NCBI GenBank assembly: GCA_965116055.1
Contig: OZ220466.1
Coordinates: 689,907 to 753,906, forward strand
Origin: Pseudomonadales bacterium
GTDB lineage: Bacteria; Pseudomonadota; Gammaproteobacteria; Pseudomonadales; Azotimanducaceae
DNA: 64,000 bases
Direction of reading: 5' to 3'
Part shown: one piece after another, positions 13,554 through 25,173 of the stretch
Layout of the letters: each line of letters begins with the position of its first letter
How positions within the stretch are numbered: the first letter of the stretch is position 1
The notes under the pieces: model-generated
What the model was told of the DNA's origin: nothing
The model's input: the letters and a program-made list of their open reading frames with translations, nothing else
Database searches by the model: none
Translations under genes and position numbers: made by a program

Positions 13554-13639
13554 GCCGAAGTGGTGGAACTGGTAGACACGCTGTCTTGAGGGGGCAGTGG
13601 GCTATGCCCGTGGAGGTTCAAATCCTCTCTTCGGCACCA
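13554..13639 (+). tRNA. leuU: tRNA-Leu (anticodon GAG), leuU-like
   Basis: The 86-nt sequence GCCGAAGTGGTGGAACTGGTAGACACGCTGTCTTGAGGGGGCAG...GGTTCAAATCCTCTCTTCGGCACCA is near-identical in architecture to E. coli leuU. It has a long variable arm, anticodon loop TTGAGGG and an encoded CCA. Confidence 0.92.
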
Positions 13640-13791: not shown

Positions 13792-14172
13792 TTGACCGTC
13801 AAGCTGATTCGCGCGACCAACAAACCGGGGTTTTACGGTGATGGCAACGCGCTTTTCTTGCGGGTCTTGCCGGGTGGCTCCAAACAATGGGTCCAGCGAC
13901 TCACCGTCCGGGGCAGGCGGCGAAACATTGGCCTCGGCGGCGTTCGTTGGGTGACGCTCGCCGAAGAGCGCGAGTCCGCCCATGAGAACCTACGCGTCAC
14001 CCGTCGCGGCGACCTGCCGGAAGCCAGACGCAAGCCGAAGATGTCGTTGTTCCGCGACGCGGCCCAGGGCAATTACGATTCCCTCTGTCCGAGATGGCGC
14101 ACCGAAAAGGTCGCCGCGAGCGGGATGCAGCAGCTCGAACGCTTGGGCGATCTGCCTGTGGGCCGCGGATGA
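13792..14172 (+). pseudogene. P4-type tyrosine integrase, N-terminal (arm-binding/DUF4102-like) fragment only
   Basis: KPGFYGDGNALFLRVLPGGSKQWVQRLTVRGRRRNIGLGGVRWVTLAEERE...RRGDLP matches the N-terminal consensus of P4-like integrases (KPG.Y.DG.GLyL.V...GsK.W..Ry...Gk...lgLG.yp.vsLaeAR). The ORF stops after 126 codons, so the core-binding and catalytic R-H-R-Y domains are missing. Confidence 0.72.
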
Positions 14173-16214
14173 TCGTACCGATTTTTCCACCCTTGGATGG
14201 GGAAACCGCTGAGCGATTCCATGCGTTGGCTACGAAACTCGCCTGCGCCCAGCGTACGCGCAACGCGAAGGAAATGAGTAGCGCATTGGAAGAAGAGACA
14301 GCTTGGTGCCGGTCGGCGAGGTGTAGCGAAAAGTATGTATTGGCCTATGAAGCGTGTGTCCGGGTTCTTACCGATCTCGCGCGGCTCGGTTGGCGCATCG
14401 TCGAACAAGGCTACGGGTTTGCCTTGGAGAAAGGCAAGGAACGGACGGGCCAGACGGCAGAAGAGATCGTGGCCAGCAAGGAGGCGCTGCGCCGTGAGTT
14501 GCAGCCCGTTGTCGATGAACAAAGGCGGCAACTCGCCGTAGTCGACTTCATCGCTCGGATGGAGGGAGAAGACAGCTACGGACGACGTAGCGTGCGGCTG
14601 CTCATGGCGGATGGAGCTGAGCTGGCGGCGAGGCTGGCGCCGGCGTGCACGCTGGAGGGTGAAGATCGGGTGGCATCGCTGAGCGATGCCATCAAGCCCT
14701 ATCTTCAGAAGGCGGACAAGAGTGTGGATCCGACGACAGGTCGTCGGCTTCGCGAGATCTGGCGTTATTTCCGGTATAGCTGGTCAATCCCCCAAGTGCC
14801 CACGCCGGGTCGGCAGTTGCTTTATCTCGTGAGGGATGCCGCGCACCCGGCACACCCGGTCATCGGCATCGCCGCACTCAACAATTGCCCACTCGAAATG
14901 GGCGAGCCGCGCGAGCGGTACATCGGCTGGCACTTCTCGGTGATCGTCGAACGCTTCACCGATGCCTTAGGGAGGGGCAAGGCGGCGCTAGAGGAGGAAG
15001 TCCGATGGCTCGAACGTCAGATCGAGACCTCACTCGCGGAAATCGACTGGACCAACCTCGTCACGGCGGCGGAAGTCGCCACTCCTGACGATGCAGTGAT
15101 CCGCCGGCTTGCGCGACGCGGGCAGGAATTCTCGAAGTTGCGGGAGACTTTGCTGAGGGCGGCTGCTGGGTCCTTTCAGGATCGGCTTGAGGCCGATCTC
15201 GCGGACGATGAAACGGCGCCCCCGGTGGATGACGACATCCTACAGCTGGAGGCGAAGGCATCGGTTGATTCACGCATGTACATGGCCCGCAAGCAACTCG
15301 TGGCGCGGAAGCGAGCCTCCGCATTGTTGCGTCTGCTGTCGGCCCGGCTCGTCATCGCCGAGCACCGGGACGAACTCACCGATCCCGAACGCGCGTCTGC
15401 AGCACTTGGCAAGGACAAGGTAAGAGGCGCGGTGAATATCGTGCTAGAGGCGCTGAAAGGGCGACGGGCAGGAGCCAATCTCCTTGAAATCACGACTTGC
15501 GGCGCGATCGCGCCCTACAATCGAATTCTCGGCGGCAAGCTCGTCGCCCTGCTGATGCTGAGCCCGCAGATCGGTGTTGACTATCGACGCCGTTATTCGG
15601 GCCCGTCAATCATCTCGTCACAAATGAAGAACCAGCCGGTGATCCGCGATAATGCGCTCGTCTATCTCGGCACGACCAGCCTCTACGTCTACGGATCTAG
15701 CCAATACAACCGGCTGCGTCTGCCGGCCGGGACGATCGCGCCGGACCAAGAGTGCATCCGTTACGATGAGATCGGTCAGACCTCCGGTTTCGGGACGATA
15801 CAGTTTTCGCCCGAAACGAGCCGTGCGATTAATGTCTTTCTAGCCCGTGAACACGGTTTCAAAGAGGTCAACAGCGTTTTCGGGGAAGGAACGAGTCCGA
15901 AGCTCCGCAAGGTGCAGATGGGGCTGCGCAGGCTGGGATTCGATCCAGGCAAGTTGATCCAGCATCGCCAACACCGCCTGATTTATGGCGCATCGCTGTT
16001 TCCGGCGGCGCGGGAGTGGTTGCAAGAACGCGTTGACGATCTGCCAGGCTATGTCGCAGCGCCGGATGGTTGCGGGGACGCCACCGAACGCATTGCCGCT
16101 TTTTGGAGGCGGCGCTGGCTCTCAAGCCGTCTTTGTCACCGGCCCAGCATGGTTGCTTTAGCGCGCGACGGTTTCGTACCCTTAGGAGAGACGGTGGGAA
16201 ATTCGGGCGGATGA
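14169..16214 (+). CDS. Island gene A: ~681-aa DUF4338/DruA-like protein with a long charged insert (function unknown)
   Basis: Two motif blocks are visible. The first is WRYFRYSWSIP..GRQLLYLVRDAAHPAHPVIGIAALNNCPLEMGEPRERYIGW. The second, ~230 aa later, is NLLEITTCGAIAPYNRILGGKLVALLMLSP...LVYLGTTSLYVYGSSQYNRL. From memory this pattern resembles the DUF4338 family (DruA of type I Druantia). The ORF is open from 14094. I prefer ATG 14169 because it forms an ATGA overlap with the integrase-stub stop. The stop overlaps the gene B start (ATGA). Confidence 0.55.
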   Translation: MIVPIFPPLDGETAERFHALATKLACAQRTRNAKEMSSALEEETAWCRSARCSEKYVLAYEACVRVLTDLARLGWRIVEQGYGFALEKGKERTGQTAEEIVASKEALRRELQPVVDEQRRQLAVVDFIARMEGEDSYGRRSVRLLMADGAELAARLAPACTLEGEDRVASLSDAIKPYLQKADKSVDPTTGRRLREIWRYFRYSWSIPQVPTPGRQLLYLVRDAAHPAHPVIGIAALNNCPLEMGEPRERYIGWHFSVIVERFTDALGRGKAALEEEVRWLERQIETSLAEIDWTNLVTAAEVATPDDAVIRRLARRGQEFSKLRETLLRAAAGSFQDRLEADLADDETAPPVDDDILQLEAKASVDSRMYMARKQLVARKRASALLRLLSARLVIAEHRDELTDPERASAALGKDKVRGAVNIVLEALKGRRAGANLLEITTCGAIAPYNRILGGKLVALLMLSPQIGVDYRRRYSGPSIISSQMKNQPVIRDNALVYLGTTSLYVYGSSQYNRLRLPAGTIAPDQECIRYDEIGQTSGFGTIQFSPETSRAINVFLAREHGFKEVNSVFGEGTSPKLRKVQMGLRRLGFDPGKLIQHRQHRLIYGASLFPAAREWLQERVDDLPGYVAAPDGCGDATERIAAFWRRRWLSSRLCHRPSMVALARDGFVPLGETVGNSGG

Positions 16215-17821
16215 GTGAGGGAGGACGCCGCGCGGAACCTACGATGGCCACAAACGACGGCGCCAGACTGTGGCGCATGCTTGCCGTGGCGGGCAGGGAA
16301 GCGATCGCCGAAGCGTTGACGGAGGAGGATTTCGAGCGGCTGCATGTTGTCGGTAGTATTGAGCGGTTCCTTGTCGACCAGGTGCAGATGGGCAGGAGTA
16401 TTGTAGTCACCGGAAATGCCGGGGACGGCAAGACGCACTTGCTGCGGCGCGTGAAGCCTAATCTCGAGAGCGCCGGCGCCGTTGTGGTCGAAGACGCGAC
16501 TGCCGAGATGATGGGTGATGATCCGCGTCCGGTTCTTGAGAAGTGGCGCAAGGCTGTGGAAGCCGGGCAGCCGTTTTGCCTGGCGGCGAATGAGTACCCG
16601 CTCTACCAGTTGAGATTGGCGGACGAATCTGCCCCGCATCTGGCGGAAGTTGACCGGCAATGCCGGCACCGCCTGGATTATGGAGAGGGCGAGCGGTCCG
16701 AGTGCAAGGGCGACACCGTGGTGATTGATCTCAGCCTCCGTAACCCGCTGAGTGCCGAGTTCTTCGGGGCTATGCTGGACAGGCTGCTGAACGACGAAGG
16801 GCTGAAGGCAGCACTGGCGAGCCCGAAAGAGTTGGCCGCCCGCCAAAATGTCGAGCTTCTTTCTCATCCACGGGTGCGGGCGCGGTTGCAGGTGCTGGCC
16901 GACCGGCTGGTGGCGTTGGGCCATCGTGCCACGGTGCGCGAGCTGTGGATCCTGTTGGCGCGAATGGTGTTCGGTCGGGGCGAGCGCGACACGTATCAAT
17001 GCGCAGACTGGTATTCGGAGGCGTTGTTCGCTCGGGACGACCGTTTCGAGCTGATGGATGCCCTGCGGGCGATGGATCCCGCCGATTGCAGCCACCCAAC
17101 ATGGGATGCTGCGCTGGATGCCCGCGAGTCCGCAGTGCGCGACGGGTGGGCGCTGCGCGCGCCAGTGCTGCCGCCGCATCCGACGCTTAAGTGGGAAGAT
17201 TTCGCTGCGCTCAAGCGCCGGTTCTATTTCGAGCACGACAAAGGCGAGGAGGCGTTCGAGTTGGACGACGCGGATGAGATTGAGTTCAGGCGGCACTTGG
17301 ACGGAAACGGTGCCTCAGGCCCGACGCTGGTTGCAAGATTGGTCGAATCCATCAACGCAGCCTACTGCCCTGTCCGCTTTGAGTTGCGCGATCAGCATTT
17401 GTATCTGTGGAACGGTCACCGCTTTCACGAGCAGCCGTCCCGGTCCTTCGTCGCCACCGAACGCGTGGCCACGGAGCAATTCGTCACGAAAGTGCCGCGC
17501 CTGCCGGAGCGGCTAGACGGGTGTTTCAAGTATCGGCCGGACCATATCTTGCTGACCGCACAAAAGCATCCGGGAACGCCGCGGCTGCGAATTGACTTCC
17601 CGCTCTGGCAGACGCTTCGCCGACTGGAGCGCGGCCTGCCGCGAAAGCTGATTCCGGAGCGCGACATTCATCGCCTGGACGCCTTCCTCCAGGAGCTCGG
17701 TGCGGGGCCGGTAGGGACTCGCGACAGCATCTGGTCTGTTCACATAGAAAACTTGGAACTGATCCAAGTGAATCTCAGCGCGGATAGGAGTCGCTTCGAG
17801 CGGGTGCGCCGCTATGGCTAA
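16211..17821 (+). CDS. Island gene B: 536-aa P-loop NTPase (family unassigned)
   Basis: Walker A IVVTGNAGDGKTHLLRRV, followed by an acidic hydrophobic strand AVVVEDATAE. The remaining ~430 aa have no motif I recognise. The ORF is open from 16070, but ATG 16211 gives an ATGA overlap with the gene A stop. Confidence 0.7.
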   Translation: MSEGGRRAEPTMATNDGARLWRMLAVAGREAIAEALTEEDFERLHVVGSIERFLVDQVQMGRSIVVTGNAGDGKTHLLRRVKPNLESAGAVVVEDATAEMMGDDPRPVLEKWRKAVEAGQPFCLAANEYPLYQLRLADESAPHLAEVDRQCRHRLDYGEGERSECKGDTVVIDLSLRNPLSAEFFGAMLDRLLNDEGLKAALASPKELAARQNVELLSHPRVRARLQVLADRLVALGHRATVRELWILLARMVFGRGERDTYQCADWYSEALFARDDRFELMDALRAMDPADCSHPTWDAALDARESAVRDGWALRAPVLPPHPTLKWEDFAALKRRFYFEHDKGEEAFELDDADEIEFRRHLDGNGASGPTLVARLVESINAAYCPVRFELRDQHLYLWNGHRFHEQPSRSFVATERVATEQFVTKVPRLPERLDGCFKYRPDHILLTAQKHPGTPRLRIDFPLWQTLRRLERGLPRKLIPERDIHRLDAFLQELGAGPVGTRDSIWSVHIENLELIQVNLSADRSRFERVRRYG

Positions 17822-19160
17822 CGCAACGCGAACGAAAGCGGACACGGCCGCCGTGCGCCGTGTACATGGTGCTATCCTCGGGTACCACCCTTACCGTATG
17901 AAGCCGGTTCACTTTGCCACGAGTTTCCTTCTGGCGTTGACTGGCCGATACCGCCGGCTCGAATACCTGAACAAAGCGTCGGTGCCGAAGACAGTACCTA
18001 GGGGCAGGCCGAACATCCAGAACGAGTACCTGGACGTTCGGCTTCATTCCCGGCTGGTCGATCTTGAGAAACTGGACCCGTCGGTTGACCTGGAGTCGTT
18101 CCGCATGCTTCGTGCGCACCTGAACGCAGCATACAACAACGACGGTTCAGCTCTCGCAGCCAGCTTTTCGCCCTATTCGACGTTCGGGGTGGACTACAGT
18201 GCCCCCTCGGCCCGATACATCTCGAACCGATCGAAGAACCATGGTTATTCGGGGAGCTTCGTCGTTTCGGTCTTGGAAGCCACCGCCGAGGGACGGGAAG
18301 CACTCGGAAGCATCAGGCGGCTGCTAGAGCTTCCGCCGCCGCCGCTGGATGCGTTCGGCGAGCCTCTGCTTGACGACGTGGACGAGGAATGGTGCGATCA
18401 GCACGACGAGTTCTACGGCACGATCGAGCCTGGAAGGCTGGCGCGGGTCGGGTCGGAAATGAAGGACTGCACGGTTGCGATAGGCTGCCTCGCCGCGAAT
18501 CTCGAGCGACTGCGATCCAGCTATTCGCTGCGCTACATGGTGCTAGGTCTCTGTTGTTGGCTGTTTGCCTACATGATGCGCCGGGGAAGCGATTCGCCGC
18601 CGCTGCTAATTGACGCGGTGCAGGGACGTAATCCCAGGATCCGCGCACAGAGCAGGGCCACCTATGCGCGGGCGCTGGACCTCTTTTCCTCCAGCTACGA
18701 CCGGGCTTTCTCGCTGGCCGGTAGCTCGGGGATCAAGGAAGACGACTGGGATGTGTTCGCCCGCTCGGAGAAAACCCGCCAAGAACTGGATGATCACTTT
18801 CGGGACTTGGGTGTGCGGATCGGCATCGTGCAGCCCCGCTCAACGGTCGCCAAGCACAAACATGTTGAACTGCAAGCGGACACGCTTCGGGTGCTCTCGT
18901 ACAGCCTGCTTAAAGAGGGCCAAGTGCTGACTCTGCCGACATTCGCAGACCAACTCAGAAGAGTCTGGTCAATTCTGGTCGGTGCCCACGCTTCGGACGG
19001 CGACGTTCTGCGCGCAAACCGCTTCGGTCCCCTTGATCACGATGAGGATCTGCGATCGAACGCGGCTGCGTTCCGATCGCTGTTGGTGAGGCTAGGCTTG
19101 GCGGTAGAGCCGTCCGACGGGCTGACACTGGTCGCGATCAACGCGGAAGAGGCGATCTGA
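17814..19160 (+). CDS. Island gene C: 448-aa hypothetical protein, no recognisable motif
   Basis: Long high-GC ORF with GC3-rich codons. It overlaps gene B by 8 nt (ATGGCTAA) and ends 1 nt before gene D. No P-loop, nuclease or TM motifs were seen. Confidence 0.65.
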   Translation: MANATRTKADTAAVRRVHGAILGYHPYRMKPVHFATSFLLALTGRYRRLEYLNKASVPKTVPRGRPNIQNEYLDVRLHSRLVDLEKLDPSVDLESFRMLRAHLNAAYNNDGSALAASFSPYSTFGVDYSAPSARYISNRSKNHGYSGSFVVSVLEATAEGREALGSIRRLLELPPPPLDAFGEPLLDDVDEEWCDQHDEFYGTIEPGRLARVGSEMKDCTVAIGCLAANLERLRSSYSLRYMVLGLCCWLFAYMMRRGSDSPPLLIDAVQGRNPRIRAQSRATYARALDLFSSSYDRAFSLAGSSGIKEDDWDVFARSEKTRQELDDHFRDLGVRIGIVQPRSTVAKHKHVELQADTLRVLSYSLLKEGQVLTLPTFADQLRRVWSILVGAHASDGDVLRANRFGPLDHDEDLRSNAAAFRSLLVRLGLAVEPSDGLTLVAINAEEAI

Positions 19161-19161
19161 G

Positions 19162-22100
19162 ATGGCGCGCACGGCAGCATCGCTGGTGAGCGAGGCACTG
19201 GCGTCTTGGATTCTCTCGCGGCTGGGCCATGAGAACGATTTCGCGCGCGAGGGACTTCCAGAGTTCGACATTCCGTGCCTGATGCAGGCACTTTCGGAGG
19301 GAGGCCTGCCTGCCGGAAGATTCTCGCTGGCGCTGGTCGGATTCGAGACGACAGAAGAGGAGGTGCGGGCGCTCGCGGACGCGAATGGTCTCAGCGCGCT
19401 TGCCGGGGTGACACTTGATCTCCATGTCGCCACCGAGTGGCGCAATGATCGCAACCGGCATCCGAGGATCGTCGCACTGGCGCTCGGCTACAATCCGGGC
19501 GTGCACGGCTTGCGCTTCTTCTCCCGCGCCTCTTCGGGAGAACTCGCAGCCATTCTGCTGGGCTGGGCGGAGAACGCATCCGAGTTCACGACCACCCCAC
19601 AGCACCAAGAGTTGCTGAAGACGCTGCGTCTGGCGCGGGGGCTGGGGTCGGTTCGTTCCCTGGAAGGCGTTGCGGCCTTTCTCGCCGAATGGAGCAAGGG
19701 AGGTGACGGGGCGATTGGCAGGCCGCGCGATGTTCTTCCCGCTCTCGGACTGCTCCGCGATCCGCGATTGTTTGAGGCAGACGACCTGGCCAAGCGTCTC
19801 GAACACAATCTGCGTGTAGGGGAGAGCGTCACCATCATGTCACCAGGAGACATCCGGCAGCGGCGCAAGCGCGCGACGCACTACCGCGATGCGGAGACGG
19901 CTGAGCTGGTGACCCAAGCGCTGGACCGACTGGAAGCCCATCGGCGCGGCGATCCCGACGCAGGGCTGACGTTGGAGGATGCGGATCGCCTCATGAGCCT
20001 TCCCGTTGACCCACCACCGGCCTCCTGCTCGGAGACGGACGAGCCAGACATTTCCGACGAACACGACGACGCCGAGGAAAAGGACGAGCCCAGACTGCAC
20101 GAGATGGCGGTGGATGCACTACTGGAAGGTCGCGATGAAGATCTCGCGGCCATCGGTGAGCTCCTTGAAGCCGCGTGGGAAGAGTTTCGGCGGAACGGGG
20201 ATCTACTGGTGTCCAGTCAGGAAACCAGCCAGGGAGTGGCTCGGCTCGAAGAGCACGTCGACCCCAAAGTCATTGACTGGGTTGCCGCCTTCTGCTGCGA
20301 GGATCGCTATGGCGGGCTCATTGAGACCGACATTGATGACCTGTCGCAGGCGCTTGCCCGCTATACCGAGTTCGACCCCCTATTCCTGGACCCAGGCGCG
20401 ATCTGGAAGCATGACGGGGTCTCCTACTCCATTGAGGAGCTGCTCAAAGGGTGGGATAAAGTGGATGCTGTCGCCGAAGCCCGCCCACGCCTGATCGCAG
20501 CGATGTGGCGCGATTTCGTCGCCGCGCGCACCTCGCTTGCGAAGGGAGGGATGACGAGTCCGCTTCTCATCCATCCTCGCGAGTGGCTTGATACCCATCC
20601 CGAAACACGAGATTTCTGCGCGCGCTACCTTGCGGTGGCGACCGAACTCTACAAGGCGATCCAGCAGAATTATCGGGCAGTCTGGGACCAGTCGCCCGAG
20701 TGGGCGCAGGCGACGCTGGACGCGATTCTGTCGCTTGACCTAGTACAAGTTCGGATTGCGGGTCTTGACGGCGGATTCAGCGCCAAGGCGGTGATGTTGC
20801 CGCTGCATCCGCTGCATCTGTGGCGATACCAGCGTTTCGGAGAAATTCTCCGCGATCTCTCGCGTACGGGACCGATGTCCGAAGGCGACAAAAAGGTCGT
20901 CATTGAGGAGTTGCGCCGTCCGGAACACTTTGTCAGCGTCATAAGAACCGGGGCCACGCCGGAAGGACGGGGGCTCAACCAGTTGCTTCCCGTCGCTAAC
21001 CAGATTCGCGGCCTCGCGACGTTCGAGAACCTGCACAATGCGATCAGCAGCGCCGATGGTATGGAGACGCTGGTTCTCGCGCTTAATCGCTTCGTGATGC
21101 TTTACCCCAACCATCCGCGGCCGCTCCGGTTGACGCTGGTCAATCCACCCGAACCAGCTCGGCTACTGGAACGACTGACGAAATTCCTGAATGAGCGGCA
21201 GAACATCGGCGGACGTCTTCCCGCCCTCAAAGTGACAGTCGTCGCCACGGCCGGGCACCGGGATCGGCTGACGGCGATGTCGGTACTCGAAAGCAAGGCG
21301 CAGGACCTGGTTTACGAGCAAGTCTCCGCCGGCCGACTTGATCTGCGCGTGGAACGCGATTCCTTTGAGAATCTCGACCGGCTGGTAACGGAGGTGCTGT
21401 CGAAGCGTCCGCAGCACTTGGTGGCGATCTTCGACGAGTCCGCGGTCTCGGTCAAGCGCAGGCGGGTCGAGCGCCTACTGCCCATGAGTCCGTTCTGCGT
21501 GCGCAACGAGATCGTGATTGATCGGATGCTGGGCGATATCAGCCTGAGTCCACATCCGGGTGAACCGCCGTTCTCGGATTTCGTGATGATGATCCACGAG
21601 TTCGAGCAGGAGCAGCGGGACAGCACGATGGTCGCCTCGGCGGATGCTGACCGGCTACGCTCGACGATTGATGACCTGCTGATCGGAGAGCGAGCGCCGG
21701 CGCGCTGGGTCCTGCTCGCGGATCGCGCTCTGCCGCCGGAAAGCGGCATGACGTCCATCCGCCTCTTGCAGCGTAGGGAGGGACATCGCCAGGTGCTGCT
21801 GAGCGCAGCTGACTATGGACGGTTGTCGACATTAATGCGTGCCGCGTTCAGTAACTGTAATCTAACGATCACGAATGAGGGGTTGGGTCACGTTCTGCGG
21901 CAGGGCGTGAACTTGGTCGGTGCCGGTTTGCTTGACATGATCAAGAAGCAGTCCGGATTGCCAGACAAATCGTTGGTGCTCGGGTTCGTGGGCATGCTGC
22001 TCGCCGCTCGACATGTGCGAAGCGAGGATCCGCATGCACTGGTCGCCTCGGTTGACGGGTCGGTCGCACGCCTCTGGCTTAAGCTGAGCCCTGTGGGTGA

Positions 22101-23937
22101 CCGCAGGCGCTGCGATCTGATTGCGCTTCGTCGAGGGGCGAACGAGTCATTTCGTATCACCTGTATTGAAGTCAAGACAACTGGGGAATCAATCCTTTCT
22201 GACGAGACAGCATTGATTGGTTATGCGGCTGACCAGATCGAGCGTACGGCGGCGGTACTGTCGAGCGCGGTTGGCGAGTCGGGGCCGTTCGCGGCACCGC
22301 GCTTGGAAATGTTGAAAGAGGTCTTGGTGAGGGCGGCATCAAGCCGCTGGGGCGAGGAGCAGGACGATGTCGCTCAGCGCAAGATCTGGGGTCCGCTGCT
22401 CAAGGACCTGCTCGGGGACGGTCCCGAACCGTCGGTCGTGCGGGTGGACGGCGAGATCGTCATCGTGAAACTGCGCTCAACGGAGCCGGCCCGGGTGAGG
22501 CCACTCAGGGGGAGAGAGATCCCGCTTTCAGTCAGGACAATAAACGAGAAGGAGGCGGAGTTCCTGTTCGACAATGATTTCGTAACCGAGGCTCCGCCGG
22601 AAGGCGCGGATTCGGACGGCGATGCTTCAGATGCAGAACAGAGGGGCGGGCATAATTCGCCCAGTGAAGAGGCGCCGCTACCGGCTGAACGTGCTTCTAA
22701 ACCGGAATCGGGATTGCGTGATGGTTACGGGACCAGGGATACGGCGACTGAAACAGGCGGGGATGAGCCATCGTTGATCGCTGCCGATGCGGCGGCCGGG
22801 AGAAAACGTCGGGACGGGACGGAGGTGCCGACGACCTCGGCGGTCGTCGACCGCGCGAACGAAGCAGTTGTCGAAGGGGAGGGGGTGAGCGCGGGTTCGG
22901 TCTGGCCGCCGCGCGTGAACGCGCTGGGGATGGTCGGACAATACGAAATCGCCCAAGAACTGGACAATCAAGCGCGCAAGGCAAGGGGCTGGGGCGAGAG
23001 GTTCCTGGACAAGTTGTTCGTCGGGCCCGCCGGCGTTGGCAAAACGACGCTCGCCCGTCGGATCGCTGAACGACTGCTTCAGCTAGAACCGATCGTGTTC
23101 AACGGCGCAGATCTTCGCCGGCCGGACATGATCGTGGAGCGACTGATGGAGGCCGGCAAGGCACCGGGCACCGGCGGACGCAGCGTTGAGGTCACAGTCG
23201 CCCCCTGCCTAATCTTCATAGACGAGGTGCATGCGGTTGCAAGCCAGGTTTCGACAGTTCTACTCAGCGCGTTAGACGAGCGGCGTAGCACCACGATCGG
23301 AAATGTGGTTTACAGTTTTGAGGATGTCGTGTTCCTGCTGGCGACCACGGATCCGGGTAGGCTCTCGGAGGCGTTCCAGAGCCGGCCGGACAAGACGATC
23401 CTGCGGTCTTACACGCTCGAGGAGGTGGCCGGGATTGTCTGGCTCCACTCCGTGGAGACGCTTGAGCAAACGGGCCTCAGCCGCGAGACCTGTATTGAGA
23501 TTGCGGCGCGCATGCAGTGCAGCCCGCGGCCGAGTGTCAACATCCTCAAGCCACTGGTGGCGAGTTTCTACGGCACAGCAGAGTACGGGCTGGGACGCGT
23601 GCCGACCAAGGAAGAAGTCGCGGACCTGATGAACACGGGTGCCGTGGCGAGGTGGTTCGAAGATACACAGGGCATTGACCGAAACGGCCTTACCTCGGTG
23701 CATGTGGAATATCTCAAGCTGCTACAGATCCGCGGTACCTCGGCGGAGGAAGAGATTCGCCGGGCGCTCGGAATCTCGAACCGGGCCGACTTCGTGATCG
23801 TATCGGAGTATCTGACCCGTCTCGACCTGATCCGCGTCGGACCTGGCGGTCGAGGTCTGACCTCCGATGGCAGGCGTTATCTCAACGCGTCGTCTCCGCC
23901 TGACTTCCGCGACAGGATCTCACGTCGCATTGCCTGA
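19162..23937 (+). CDS. Island gene D: 1591-aa multidomain protein (large unknown N-region, PD-(D/E)xK-like motif, acidic disordered linker, complete RuvB-like AAA+ ATPase with C-terminal winged helix)
   Basis: The nuclease-like motif is CDLIALRRGANESFRITCIEVKTT (D985...E1003-x-K1005, nt 22114-22176). The RuvB-like part begins at PPRVNALGMVGQYEIAQEL. It has Walker A FVGPAGVGKTTLARRIAE (nt 23023-23046), Walker B CLIFIDEVHAV (D1354 E1355) and sensor-1 FLLATTDPGRLSEAFQSRPD. The C-terminal block GIDRNGLTSVHVEYLKLL...ALGISNRADFVIVSEYLTRLDLIRVGPGGRGLTSDGRRYL mirrors the RuvB C-domain consensus (GLD..D..yL..l...G....iA.alg......e.v.EPyLi..g.i.RTpRGR..T). Confidence 0.8.
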   Translation: MARTAASLVSEALASWILSRLGHENDFAREGLPEFDIPCLMQALSEGGLPAGRFSLALVGFETTEEEVRALADANGLSALAGVTLDLHVATEWRNDRNRHPRIVALALGYNPGVHGLRFFSRASSGELAAILLGWAENASEFTTTPQHQELLKTLRLARGLGSVRSLEGVAAFLAEWSKGGDGAIGRPRDVLPALGLLRDPRLFEADDLAKRLEHNLRVGESVTIMSPGDIRQRRKRATHYRDAETAELVTQALDRLEAHRRGDPDAGLTLEDADRLMSLPVDPPPASCSETDEPDISDEHDDAEEKDEPRLHEMAVDALLEGRDEDLAAIGELLEAAWEEFRRNGDLLVSSQETSQGVARLEEHVDPKVIDWVAAFCCEDRYGGLIETDIDDLSQALARYTEFDPLFLDPGAIWKHDGVSYSIEELLKGWDKVDAVAEARPRLIAAMWRDFVAARTSLAKGGMTSPLLIHPREWLDTHPETRDFCARYLAVATELYKAIQQNYRAVWDQSPEWAQATLDAILSLDLVQVRIAGLDGGFSAKAVMLPLHPLHLWRYQRFGEILRDLSRTGPMSEGDKKVVIEELRRPEHFVSVIRTGATPEGRGLNQLLPVANQIRGLATFENLHNAISSADGMETLVLALNRFVMLYPNHPRPLRLTLVNPPEPARLLERLTKFLNERQNIGGRLPALKVTVVATAGHRDRLTAMSVLESKAQDLVYEQVSAGRLDLRVERDSFENLDRLVTEVLSKRPQHLVAIFDESAVSVKRRRVERLLPMSPFCVRNEIVIDRMLGDISLSPHPGEPPFSDFVMMIHEFEQEQRDSTMVASADADRLRSTIDDLLIGERAPARWVLLADRALPPESGMTSIRLLQRREGHRQVLLSAADYGRLSTLMRAAFSNCNLTITNEGLGHVLRQGVNLVGAGLLDMIKKQSGLPDKSLVLGFVGMLLAARHVRSEDPHALVASVDGSVARLWLKLSPVGDRRRCDLIALRRGANESFRITCIEVKTTGESILSDETALIGYAADQIERTAAVLSSAVGESGPFAAPRLEMLKEVLVRAASSRWGEEQDDVAQRKIWGPLLKDLLGDGPEPSVVRVDGEIVIVKLRSTEPARVRPLRGREIPLSVRTINEKEAEFLFDNDFVTEAPPEGADSDGDASDAEQRGGHNSPSEEAPLPAERASKPESGLRDGYGTRDTATETGGDEPSLIAADAAAGRKRRDGTEVPTTSAVVDRANEAVVEGEGVSAGSVWPPRVNALGMVGQYEIAQELDNQARKARGWGERFLDKLFVGPAGVGKTTLARRIAERLLQLEPIVFNGADLRRPDMIVERLMEAGKAPGTGGRSVEVTVAPCLIFIDEVHAVASQVSTVLLSALDERRSTTIGNVVYSFEDVVFLLATTDPGRLSEAFQSRPDKTILRSYTLEEVAGIVWLHSVETLEQTGLSRETCIEIAARMQCSPRPSVNILKPLVASFYGTAEYGLGRVPTKEEVADLMNTGAVARWFEDTQGIDRNGLTSVHVEYLKLLQIRGTSAEEEIRRALGISNRADFVIVSEYLTRLDLIRVGPGGRGLTSDGRRYLNASSPPDFRDRISRRIA

Positions 23938-24114: not shown

Positions 24115-25010
24115 TCACCAAACCCCGTAATCGGGAACCCGAGAAGGCTCTTGTGTTGTTATATGTGTATCTTGTCCGACATGCTCGACAATAAAGTTCG
24201 TTTCGATGGTGTTGTCGGCAATAAGCTGATCTTCAAGGTCGTTCGACGGCGGAAGCGTTTCGAAATGTCTGGCTAGGTCTTCCTCACTAAACCCGCGCTT
24301 CAGGATGCCCTTTTGAACTTCTCGGCCTCTTGATCGACATCCACGATCATGTGCCAGGGATTTCAAAGGTCTCCACCAATGCCGGATAGATCCCGGCATT
24401 ACCGCTCTGCTTGAAGTCGACAACGGCGACGCCGTGTGTATCAAGAGGCCAGCCTAGATCTTTGCCGAGCGCATGTACAAAGAGGTATTCGGTAACGCCT
24501 TCGACAAGAAGCTAGCGGCGGGCGAAGAAGATTTCTCCGCGGACACGCCGTCCATGAAAACCGAGTTCTTCTTCATCCTCGGTCGTCGGGAGAATGCGGC
24601 CTTGGTGACGAAGGCGGCGGATCGCTTCGGCGCGTTCATGACGGTCGGGATCGCGCTGATAGCACTCGAAAGGCGATCAGACATGGTCATGTCGAACCAG
24701 ATCGTACCGCCACGCTCTTGGTCGGAATGCCTTGCAAGAAGATTTGGTCGCCTGATGCCGCGATGAACGCATCATGACTGTCGTTCCAAGGCAGCTCGGA
24801 AACGATATACGGCGGTAGTAAGGAAAATTCGGCACAGCCACCCGCAACCGAACCAGCCTGATGTCGCGCAACGGCACATTCTGGACAAAATACGGGGAGT
24901 AGGTCGTCATGACTTTCTGACCGGATAACTCCTGCACACGCTCCCACAATTTGTGCGCCGCTTGCGGGTGGAGATGAACCGCCGGTTCCTTTATAGCGAA
25001 AAAAAGAAAG
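24115..25010 (-). pseudogene. OLD-family (ABC-type ATPase + Toprim) nuclease remnant, 5'-truncated and frameshifted
   Basis: Four frame segments read on the minus strand. (1) FAIKEPAVHLHPQAAHKLWERVQELSGQKVMTTYSPYFV is the Walker-B/D-loop/H-loop region of OLD/AAA_15-type ATPases (consensus IEEPE.HLHP....TTHSP). (2) LLVEGVTEYLFVHALGKDLGWPLDTHGVAVVDFKQSGN carries the Toprim Glu. (3) IPWHMIVDVDQEAEKF carries the Toprim DxD. (4) The C-terminal tail. In-frame stops and frameshifts separate the segments. The Walker A half is absent. Confidence 0.72.
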
Positions 25011-25096: not shown

Positions 25097-25173
25097 TGCG
25101 GGGTGGAGCAGTCTGGTAGCTTGTTGGGCTCATAACCCAAAGGTCGTAGGTTCAAATCCTACCCCCGCAACCA
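25097..25173 (+). tRNA. metY: tRNA-Met (CAU), initiator type (metY-like)
   Basis: The 77-nt sequence TGCGGGGTGGAGCAGTCTGGTAGCTTGTTGGGCTCATAACCCAAAGGTCGTAGGTTCAAATCCTACCCCCGCAACCA aligns base-for-base with E. coli tRNA-fMet. It has three consecutive G:C pairs in the anticodon stem and A11:U24. It lies upstream of rimP-nusA-infB, as metY does in E. coli. Confidence 0.9.

Follow-up and report, generated by a model that had tools for sequence, protein, structure and literature searches.

The 64,000-nucleotide stretch of contig OZ220466.1 analysed here (assembly GCA_965116055.1, from a Pseudomonadales bacterium of the Azotimanducaceae), referred to below as the window, carries an island of ~10 kb with a guanine-plus-cytosine (GC) content of 61–63% within a chromosome of 52% GC. 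The GC fraction jumps from 0.52 to 0.61–0.63 at 14–24 kb and is back at ~0.52 past 24 kb, and the island is bounded by secG and tRNA-Leu(GAG) on the left and by tRNA-Met and the rimP-nusA-infB genes on the right. Within it lies a translationally coupled four-gene operon in which starts and stops overlap or abut, encoding in order DruA, a DndF/SspF-like P-loop protein (F), a DndG-like protein (G) and, last, a protein of 1591 amino acids (aa), termed H here, which is the main subject of this article. H joins a large nuclease-bearing scaffold to a C-terminal AAA+ module resembling that of RuvB. The evidence assembled below indicates that H is probably a DndH-family subunit in which a RuvB-like AAA+ module has taken the place of the C-terminal HerA/FtsK pump, and that the DruA-F-G-H operon is, on this same reading, likely to be a horizontally acquired, DruA-associated defence cassette of the DndFGH-like kind.

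A preliminary description of this DNA had proposed that the C-terminus of H contains the whole RuvB layout rather than a generic AAA+ domain, and on both counts it was correct; the open reading frame is real and all of the motifs quoted for it lie where they were placed. The conserved module (ATPase, lid and winged helix; residues ~1249–1577) comprises the pre-Walker segment PPRVNALGMVGQ (residues 1249–1260), Walker A (GPAGVGKT, 1288–1295; nt 23023–23046), Walker B (LIFIDEVH, 1350–1357), sensor-1 (LLATTDPG, 1392–1399), the arginine-finger segment FQSRPD (1405–1410) and sensor-2 (CSPRPSVN, 1453–1460). The key residues of the motor are K1294 in Walker A, D1354 and E1355 in Walker B, T1395 and T1396 in sensor 1, R1408 as the arginine finger and R1456 in sensor 2, and all five elements are invariant or nearly so in 90–106 homologues. 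The NCBIfam RuvB model NF000868 matches at E 5e-16 across model positions 27–327 of 330. When a profile built from 90 homologues was used to rank PDB chains, RuvB came first (3pfi, 6e-14; 1in4, 1e-12), and the 1in4 match, over RuvB residues 27–326 of 334, takes in the C-terminal winged helix; the matches to Clp and FtsH chains are confined to the ATPase core of the module, and AAA_5 is secondary. Similarly, tblastn with the last 351 aa retrieves annotated ruvB genes at >90% query coverage and 24–28% identity, and DnaX and Clp only in part. Neither DUF87 nor FtsK_SpoIIIE matches the C-terminus of H, unlike those of its relatives described below. The module nevertheless misses the RuvB equivalog cut-offs (58.4 bits versus 282 for NF000868; 50.7 versus 299 for TIGR00635), and with a score of 58 bits against a cut-off of 282 it is best regarded as RuvB-like and not as a RuvB orthologue. 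In RuvB the pre-sensor-1 hairpin contacts RuvA, and the hairpin of the H module is 7 residues shorter.

Upstream of the motor lies the nuclease domain, whose motifs are CDLIALRR (984–991), containing D985, and ITCIEVKTT (999–1007), containing E1003 and K1005. In a 30-member set at 16–39% identity to H, the residues D965, D985, E1003, K1005 and Q1025 are invariant, and an AF2 model (pLDDT 82, pTM 0.65) places the nuclease residues on a helix-strand-strand-strand-helix core typical of PD-(D/E)xK enzymes. The predicted core thus fits the restriction-endonuclease-type fold that had been proposed from the D...ExK motif alone. The two linkers suggested at the same time are also borne out, the first by its acidic composition and low pLDDT and the second by its unconserved sequence and variable length (Table 1). 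The first ~950 aa, which had been reported as unplaceable by motif, match no Pfam, NCBIfam or PDB sequence model; Pfam searches with four N-terminal segments at E≤10 give nothing meaningful, and PDB sequence and profile searches of H find no match outside the AAA+ module. The central region, in which the PLHPLHLW motif (546–554) is invariant, probably corresponds to the portion of the DndH scaffold that comprises the inactive methyltransferase and target recognition. A Foldseek search of the PDB with a 1150-aa N-terminal model yields weak local matches, the top ones being amino-methyltransferase folds (3p9n, probability 0.99; 2esr, probability 0.96), together with a weak match to McrC (probability 0.69). 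The Rossmann matches to methyltransferases agree with, without proving, the inactive methyltransferase domain reported for DndH. In the same region the segment LVNPPEP (residues 659–665; nt 21136–21156) places an (N/D)PP motif after a beta-strand and is conserved throughout the family (consensus LVDPP). It resembles the (D/N/S)PP(Y/F/W) motif of amino-methyltransferases minus the aromatic residue, and canonical DptH has lost it (NVINMG).

Table 1. Features of the island and domain map of the H protein (positions are those of the window).
Feature	Position	Strand	Remarks
tRNA-Leu(GAG)	13554..13639	+	ARAGORN; left border of 62%-GC island
Tyrosine integrase remnant	13792..14172	+	126 aa; Pfam Arm-DNA-bind_3, E 4e-11
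Gene 1, DruA (DUF4338)	14094..16214	+	706 aa; PADLOC PDLC00001, Pfam PF14236
Gene 2, DndF/SspF-like P-loop protein (F)	16211..17821	+	536 aa; ATG overlaps DruA stop (ATGA)
Gene 3, DndG-like protein (G)	17814..19160	+	448 aa; AF2 model and Foldseek
Gene 4, DndH-like H subunit (probable)	19162..23937	+	ATG start, 1591 aa
H, N-terminal domain, residues 1–280	19162..20001	+	LGLLxDP...RLxxN motif, common to DptH
H, acidic disordered linker 1, residues 281–313	20002..20100	+	39% D/E; pLDDT <50
H, central region, residues 314–930	20101..21951	+	PLHPLHLW (546–554); Rossmann-like segment, (N/D)PP (661–663)
H, PD-(D/E)xK nuclease domain, residues ~931–1137	21952..22572	+	Key residues D965, D985, E1003, K1005, Q1025
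H, disordered linker 2, residues 1138–1247	22573..22902	+	74% D/E/G/S/P/A/T; unconserved, variable length
H, RuvB-like AAA+ module, residues 1248–1591	22903..23934	+	ATPase, lid, winged helix 1509–1574
tRNA-Met	25097..25173	+	ARAGORN; beyond the island's right side the host sequence continues with rimP-nusA-infB

Full-length homologues of H form ~130 clusters at 42–86% identity and are labelled in public databases only as 'AAA family ATPase' or 'RuvABC helicase subunit'. Among 34 genome loci from at least 8 phyla, all those on contigs of sufficient length show the whole cassette of DruA, F, G and H in conserved order; these number ~30 and come from Alphaproteobacteria, Acidobacteriota, Gammaproteobacteria, Verrucomicrobiota, Bacillota, Planctomycetota and other groups. 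H had been likened at first to McrBC in one chain; it is not a free-standing system but one subunit of a conserved four-gene cassette. DruA is found in every related locus of sufficient length, either as a separate gene or fused to gene 2. The fused form belongs to a branch at ~40% identity (L001, 4964–8689; also L023, L027, L030, L031 and L040) in which DruA and the DndF-like protein make up a single chain of ~1240 aa, which argues for a physical association of DruA with the F subunit. Fusions of DUF4338 with DndF have been recorded previously (Rakesh, Aravind and Krishnan, 2024; PMC10853773).

The family widens considerably when only the scaffold is considered. An exhaustive HMMER search with the N-terminal 1130 aa recovers 397 clusters at 50% identity, 161 of them at E≤1e-30, and most of the proteins are of 1500–1600 aa. 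A RuvB-like C-terminus is restricted to the nearest of these clusters, and in the others the Walker A motif is of the FtsK or HerA type and the Pfam domain is FtsK_SpoIIIE or DUF87. These non-RuvB relatives match the PADLOC models for DndH (best 9e-77) and SspH (best 8e-88) in the ATPase region only; matches confined to the C-terminal ATPase are on their own no proof of homology at the N-terminus. A protein that allows direct comparison is P0250, which combines the H-type N-terminus (E 1e-227) with a DndH-type HerA ATPase (3e-70). At two loci with a DruA-F fusion and a G gene, H lacks the RuvB-like C-terminus (L031, 8986–13593; L040, 6649–11277) and presumably ends in a HerA-type ATPase, like P0247, P0250 and P0260. 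An archaeal four-gene cassette is present on the plasmid of Haloplanus sp. GDY1 (NZ_CP098517.1; L042, 1515–11344), where PGAP labels one product as DruA, two as hypothetical proteins and the fourth as 'DNA translocase FtsK'; behind this fourth label is a 1535-aa, nuclease-containing DndH-like protein. A further variant of 1760 aa (P0274) continues the same N-terminal scaffold with the alpha and motor domains of FtsK and ends in a Lon protease C-terminal domain (Lon_C, 5e-47; PADLOC BrxL, 7e-18). In a rough neighbour-joining tree of the N-terminal region, the RuvB-type proteins form one clade, with a few HerA-type members interleaved, inside a large FtsK/HerA-type radiation.

Some further observations concern the P0250-type motor and the surroundings of the cassette. 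Proteins on rhizobial plasmids of Shinella, Sinorhizobium and Rhizobium (matches H5–H8), labelled 'ATP-binding proteins', are 51–55% identical to the HerA-type C-terminus of P0250 but do not match the N-terminal scaffold, and could represent either a donor of the P0250-type motor or an independent use of it. Several related loci are flanked by other defence-type genes. In Rhizobium (L005, 16490–24393) the cassette adjoins genes for a 2060-aa DEAD/YjiV_N/MZB (YprA/DruE-like) helicase and a NERD helicase, and in Sphingomonas (L003, 15014–16597) it adjoins PIN and HEPN genes.

A probable connection of this scaffold to canonical DptH emerged from a comparison of a profile of 66 N-terminal family sequences with 120 canonical DptH N-termini using hhalign. 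Residues 445–1038 align with DptH 557–1138, nuclease motif included, at a probability of 96.3% (E 1.8e-9), and a second, colinear match pairs residues 2–240 with DptH 3–237 (81.7%, E 1e-5). A DptH hmmsearch matches the N-terminal domain region (residues 1–280) at E 3e-8, and a control with the reversed profile gives a probability of 0.5%. The alignment pairs PLHPLHLW with PFHPLNLS of DptH, and CDLI...IEVKTT...DQ with DDVL...LEVKTG...EQ. Both a deeper DptH profile and a query limited to the N-terminus were required to reveal this link, and when a mixed family alignment was compared with 2 DptH sequences, the ATPase region alone was matched. The detailed analysis of DndH published in 2024 states that a HerA/FtsK ATPase is always located at the DndH C-terminus and that it has been captured from various sources (PMC10853773). 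RuvB is unmentioned in that analysis of DndFGH, and no paper in the literature searched connects DndH, DptH or SspH with RuvB.

The partner genes point in the same direction. DruA matches PADLOC PDLC00001 at E 4e-126 over residues 66–683 and Pfam PF14236 at E 3e-26, and its DUF4338 domain has been described as GNAT-like (PMC10853773). The best match of gene 2 in defence databases is PADLOC SspF (E 6e-11), and its residues 42–299 align with DptF 37–296 in hhalign (probability 67%, E 5e-5). It carries a Walker A motif (GNAGDGKT), a conserved DAT after strand 2 and an asparagine at the Walker B position (LAANE), features that agree with those described for DndF, whose Walker A is canonical, whose strand 2 is followed by an acidic residue and in which asparagine replaces the Walker B aspartate (PMC10853773). 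Gene 3 resembles no named protein at the sequence level; its AF2 model (pLDDT 87.5, pTM 0.89) has one confident Foldseek match in the PDB, 7EXX, the structure of DndG (probability 1.00, E 1e-2, TM 0.38), and every other match has a probability <0.1. The sizes of F, G and H (536/448/1591 aa) are close to those of DptF, DptG and DptH on a Massilia plasmid (536/438/1675 aa). PADLOC 2.0 holds no model for genes 2–4, and no PADLOC or Pfam match to DruB–E was obtained for the three cassette proteins other than DruA; the island contains no DUF1998/YprA helicase. A preprint on YprA-family helicases of Druantia, DISARM and Dpd says nothing on partners of DruA. DruA is an obligatory fourth component, and could be a supplier of a self mark, a regulator or a back-up effector.

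The borders of the island record something of how the cassette arrived. The integrase remnant is of the P4 type, retains the N-terminal arm-DNA-binding domain only, lies directly after tRNA-Leu and overlaps the start of the DruA gene. With its truncated integrase next to tRNA-Leu, the island has the appearance of a degraded element that had integrated at a tRNA gene. A search across it for att-type direct repeats of the tRNA-Leu 3' end was negative, and it contains no mobility genes besides the truncated integrase; neither ruvA nor ruvC is present in it. At its right edge, the minus-strand reading frame 24677–24949 (90 aa) shows a weak match to a fragment of DUF2813 (OLD/GajA-type ATPase; E 0.0045), and could be what is left of a further defence gene.

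If H is indeed a DndH-family subunit with an exchanged motor, it is likely to have kept the other parts of the DndH scaffold, namely N-terminal DNA-binding modules, a degenerate methyltransferase-like and target-recognition region and an intact nuclease. By analogy, its mode of action is probably ATP-driven DNA translocation coupled to nicking or cleavage. DndFGH has been shown by experiment to bind DNA, translocate along it and nick it (PMC10470545). In such a scheme the G subunit, of winged helix-turn-helix type, and the N-terminal modules of H would bind DNA; F, a P-loop kinase-like nucleotide binder, would sense or license; the RuvB-like module, through its conserved arginine finger, would assemble into an ATP-driven ring or oligomer that pumps double-stranded DNA; and the nuclease, tethered by a flexible linker of ~110 residues, would nick or cleave foreign DNA during translocation. 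Motor and nuclease do lie in one chain, as first noted, and translocation-coupled cleavage is by this analogy still the most plausible mode, although the likeness to McrBC that had suggested it is a conceptual one.

Several observations count against this interpretation of H and its cassette. A profile of the narrow RuvB-type clade does not detect DptH significantly (2.8%, though on the correct diagonal), so that the DptH link is a transitive one that runs through the broad family profile, and NCBIfam and PADLOC searches with the whole H protein and with four N-terminal pieces, at E≤10, return no DptH, DndH or SspH match. The link between G and DndG is purely structural, at a TM of 0.38, and neither a comparison of the gene 3 profile with DptG in hhalign nor one with the PDB sequence of DndG gives any sequence signal. 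The methyltransferase-like region has weak Foldseek support (E≥0.03), and no modification genes are linked to the cassette. For DndFGH, moreover, a 2:2:1 stoichiometry of F:G:H has been reported, with one H subunit per complex (PMC10470545), which leaves no obvious place for a hexameric motor; the scheme given above assumes that the RuvB-like module forms a ring.

It is very improbable that H is instead a new, self-contained McrBC-like enzyme that couples a nuclease to a RuvB motor in one chain and is unrelated to known defence families. Such an enzyme would account for the curated defence models that miss H, for the 950 N-terminal aa with no Pfam, NCBIfam or PDB sequence match and for the silence of the literature searched on any tie between RuvB and DndH, DptH or SspH, but the H gene is never found alone, DruA and the F-like and G-like genes preceding it in every locus of sufficient length; its N-terminus and nuclease are homologous to those of hundreds of HerA/FtsK-bearing proteins and, through them, probably to those of DptH; and its AAA+ module is RuvB-like and not McrB-like. 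The wider family, the DptH alignment and the conservation of the cassette largely refute the idea of a single-chain McrBC-like enzyme. The matching subunit sizes and the resemblances of F, G and H would also fit an ordinary DptFGH or SspFGH module that recognises phosphorothioate (PT) marks introduced by dnd or ssp genes at another site in the genome. This too is improbable, if somewhat less so. The case has been made from comparative analysis that DndFGH and PT modification are often uncoupled (PMC10853773), NCBIfam scores for DptF, DptG and DptH lie far under the cut-offs or there is no match, and dndBCDE homologues are absent from the 64-kb window; none was noticed next to the cassette when gene tables of related loci were examined, no search for dnd/ssp having been made in these. 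In addition, DruA, obligatory here, is absent from two canonical dptFGH loci, and the motor is RuvB-like.

The main rival on the role of the motor holds that the RuvB-like module is not a processive pump of double-stranded DNA but a sensor or switch, which would respond to branched DNA or to recombination or replication intermediates of invaders, or license the nuclease through ATP-gated oligomerisation. This is unlikely, though less so than the two readings above. RuvB normally acts on Holliday junctions, the module has kept the DNA-binding winged helix, and the pre-sensor-1 hairpin, shorter by 7 residues, marks it as diverged from the RuvA-dependent machine; a complex with one H subunit, as in the 2:2:1 stoichiometry of DndFGH (PMC10470545), would also suit a switch. 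Set against these points, the Walker motifs, the arginine finger and the sensor residues are all intact, and FtsK/HerA pumps occupy the same position in sister proteins, a sign that the module may be their functional equivalent in translocation. Motors of the FtsK/HerA and RuvB kinds have roles in DNA segregation and recombination as well, and the cassette lies in a tRNA-associated island with an integrase remnant, so it might be supposed to serve the replication, segregation or transfer of a mobile element and not the defence of the host. This we consider very improbable: the integrase is truncated and other mobility genes are absent from the island, the nuclease is intact, the DruA, DndF-like and DndG-like partners are defence-associated, and the same cassette recurs in unrelated contexts, often beside PIN/HEPN, NERD or YprA-type helicase genes. 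The preferred reading remains that of a DndH-like subunit carrying a RuvB-like translocase.

DndFGH-type complexes are large translocase-nucleases that are poorly understood, the sole detailed domain analysis being that of 2024 (PMC10853773), and what is new here is a RuvB-like motor in the position where a HerA/FtsK ATPase was stated to be universal. A RuvB-like motor on a DndH scaffold means that motor capture crosses ATPase superfamilies. The architecture was described at first as one without known precedent, with membership of a family such as DptH named as evidence to the contrary. As regards the motor that description stands, whereas the N-terminal ~1100 aa and the nuclease belong to a large family whose other members carry HerA/FtsK ATPases of the DndH/SspH type and which aligns colinearly with canonical DptH, and the neighbouring genes are DndF-like and DndG-like. 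The architecture is thus real and apparently undescribed, but it amounts to the exchange of a motor within a restriction complex of known type and not to a system of a new kind. It provides a natural motor-swap experiment, since RuvB-type and HerA-type versions exist within one cassette family (P0250, L031 and L040 being close HerA-type relatives), and their comparison could reveal whether the motor contributes plain translocation, substrate choice or localisation. DruA, so far a gene of Druantia type I, becomes tied to a second system. Under the public labels of its members ('AAA family ATPase', 'RuvABC helicase subunit' and 'DNA translocase FtsK') the system is at present invisible to defence finders. 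A bolder proposal, offered tentatively and as rather doubtful in its full extent, is that DruA-F-G-H constitutes a distinct bacterial and archaeal defence system free of modification genes, in which H is a plug-and-play chassis for motors of unrelated ATPase superfamilies (FtsK, HerA, FtsK with a Lon protease domain, and RuvB-like); the RuvB-type version would then be the first restriction-type enzyme with a branch-migration-class motor and might target branched intermediates of phage replication or recombination, with DruA supplying a self/non-self or licensing function.

Comparison with known systems places the cassette between several of them. With RuvB itself, the H module shares the three domains in order, the IGQ pre-Walker segment, Walker A and B, sensor 1, the arginine finger and sensor 2, and the TPR/SPR and PRGR/PGGR-type motifs of the winged helix; however, RuvB is a stand-alone protein of ~335 aa that works with RuvA and RuvC, whereas the module forms the C-terminal part of a 1591-aa protein, fused to a nuclease scaffold of 1240 aa, at 24–28% identity, with a shortened hairpin and in a context devoid of RuvA and RuvC. 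In Druantia type I, DruA (DUF4338) is found with DruB, DruC, DruD and the DruE (DUF1998/YprA) helicase; the present cassette has DruA in common with it but lacks DruB, C, D and E. McrBC offers the shared concept of an AAA+ motor coupled to a PD-(D/E)xK nuclease with translocation-dependent cleavage, but here the motor is RuvB-like and not the McrB GTPase, a single chain unites motor, nuclease and DndH scaffold, and the partners are other proteins. The likeness to SspFGH consists of the F subunit, for which SspF is the best match (6e-11), and of the FtsK-type relatives of H that match SspH in the ATPase region, whereas H itself has no SspH match, sspABCD genes are lacking and the motor is of another type. 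The closest resemblance is to DndFGH/DptFGH, with which the cassette shares a three-subunit core of matching sizes, a P-loop F protein with asparagine at Walker B, the DndG-like fold of G, an H scaffold that is probably homologous and colinear, the P(L/F)HPL and D...(L/I)EVKT...Q nuclease motifs and a C-terminal ATPase placed after the nuclease; it differs in the RuvB-like AAA+ module that replaces HerA/FtsK, in the constant presence of DruA, in the lack of linked dnd modification genes and in lying beyond the reach of every curated Dpt model. As in the systems that have captured HerA/FtsK ATPases (PMC10853773), a conserved DndH-type scaffold has repeatedly acquired different DNA-pumping ATPases, but here the motor has been captured from another superfamily, the RuvB-like AAA+ proteins.

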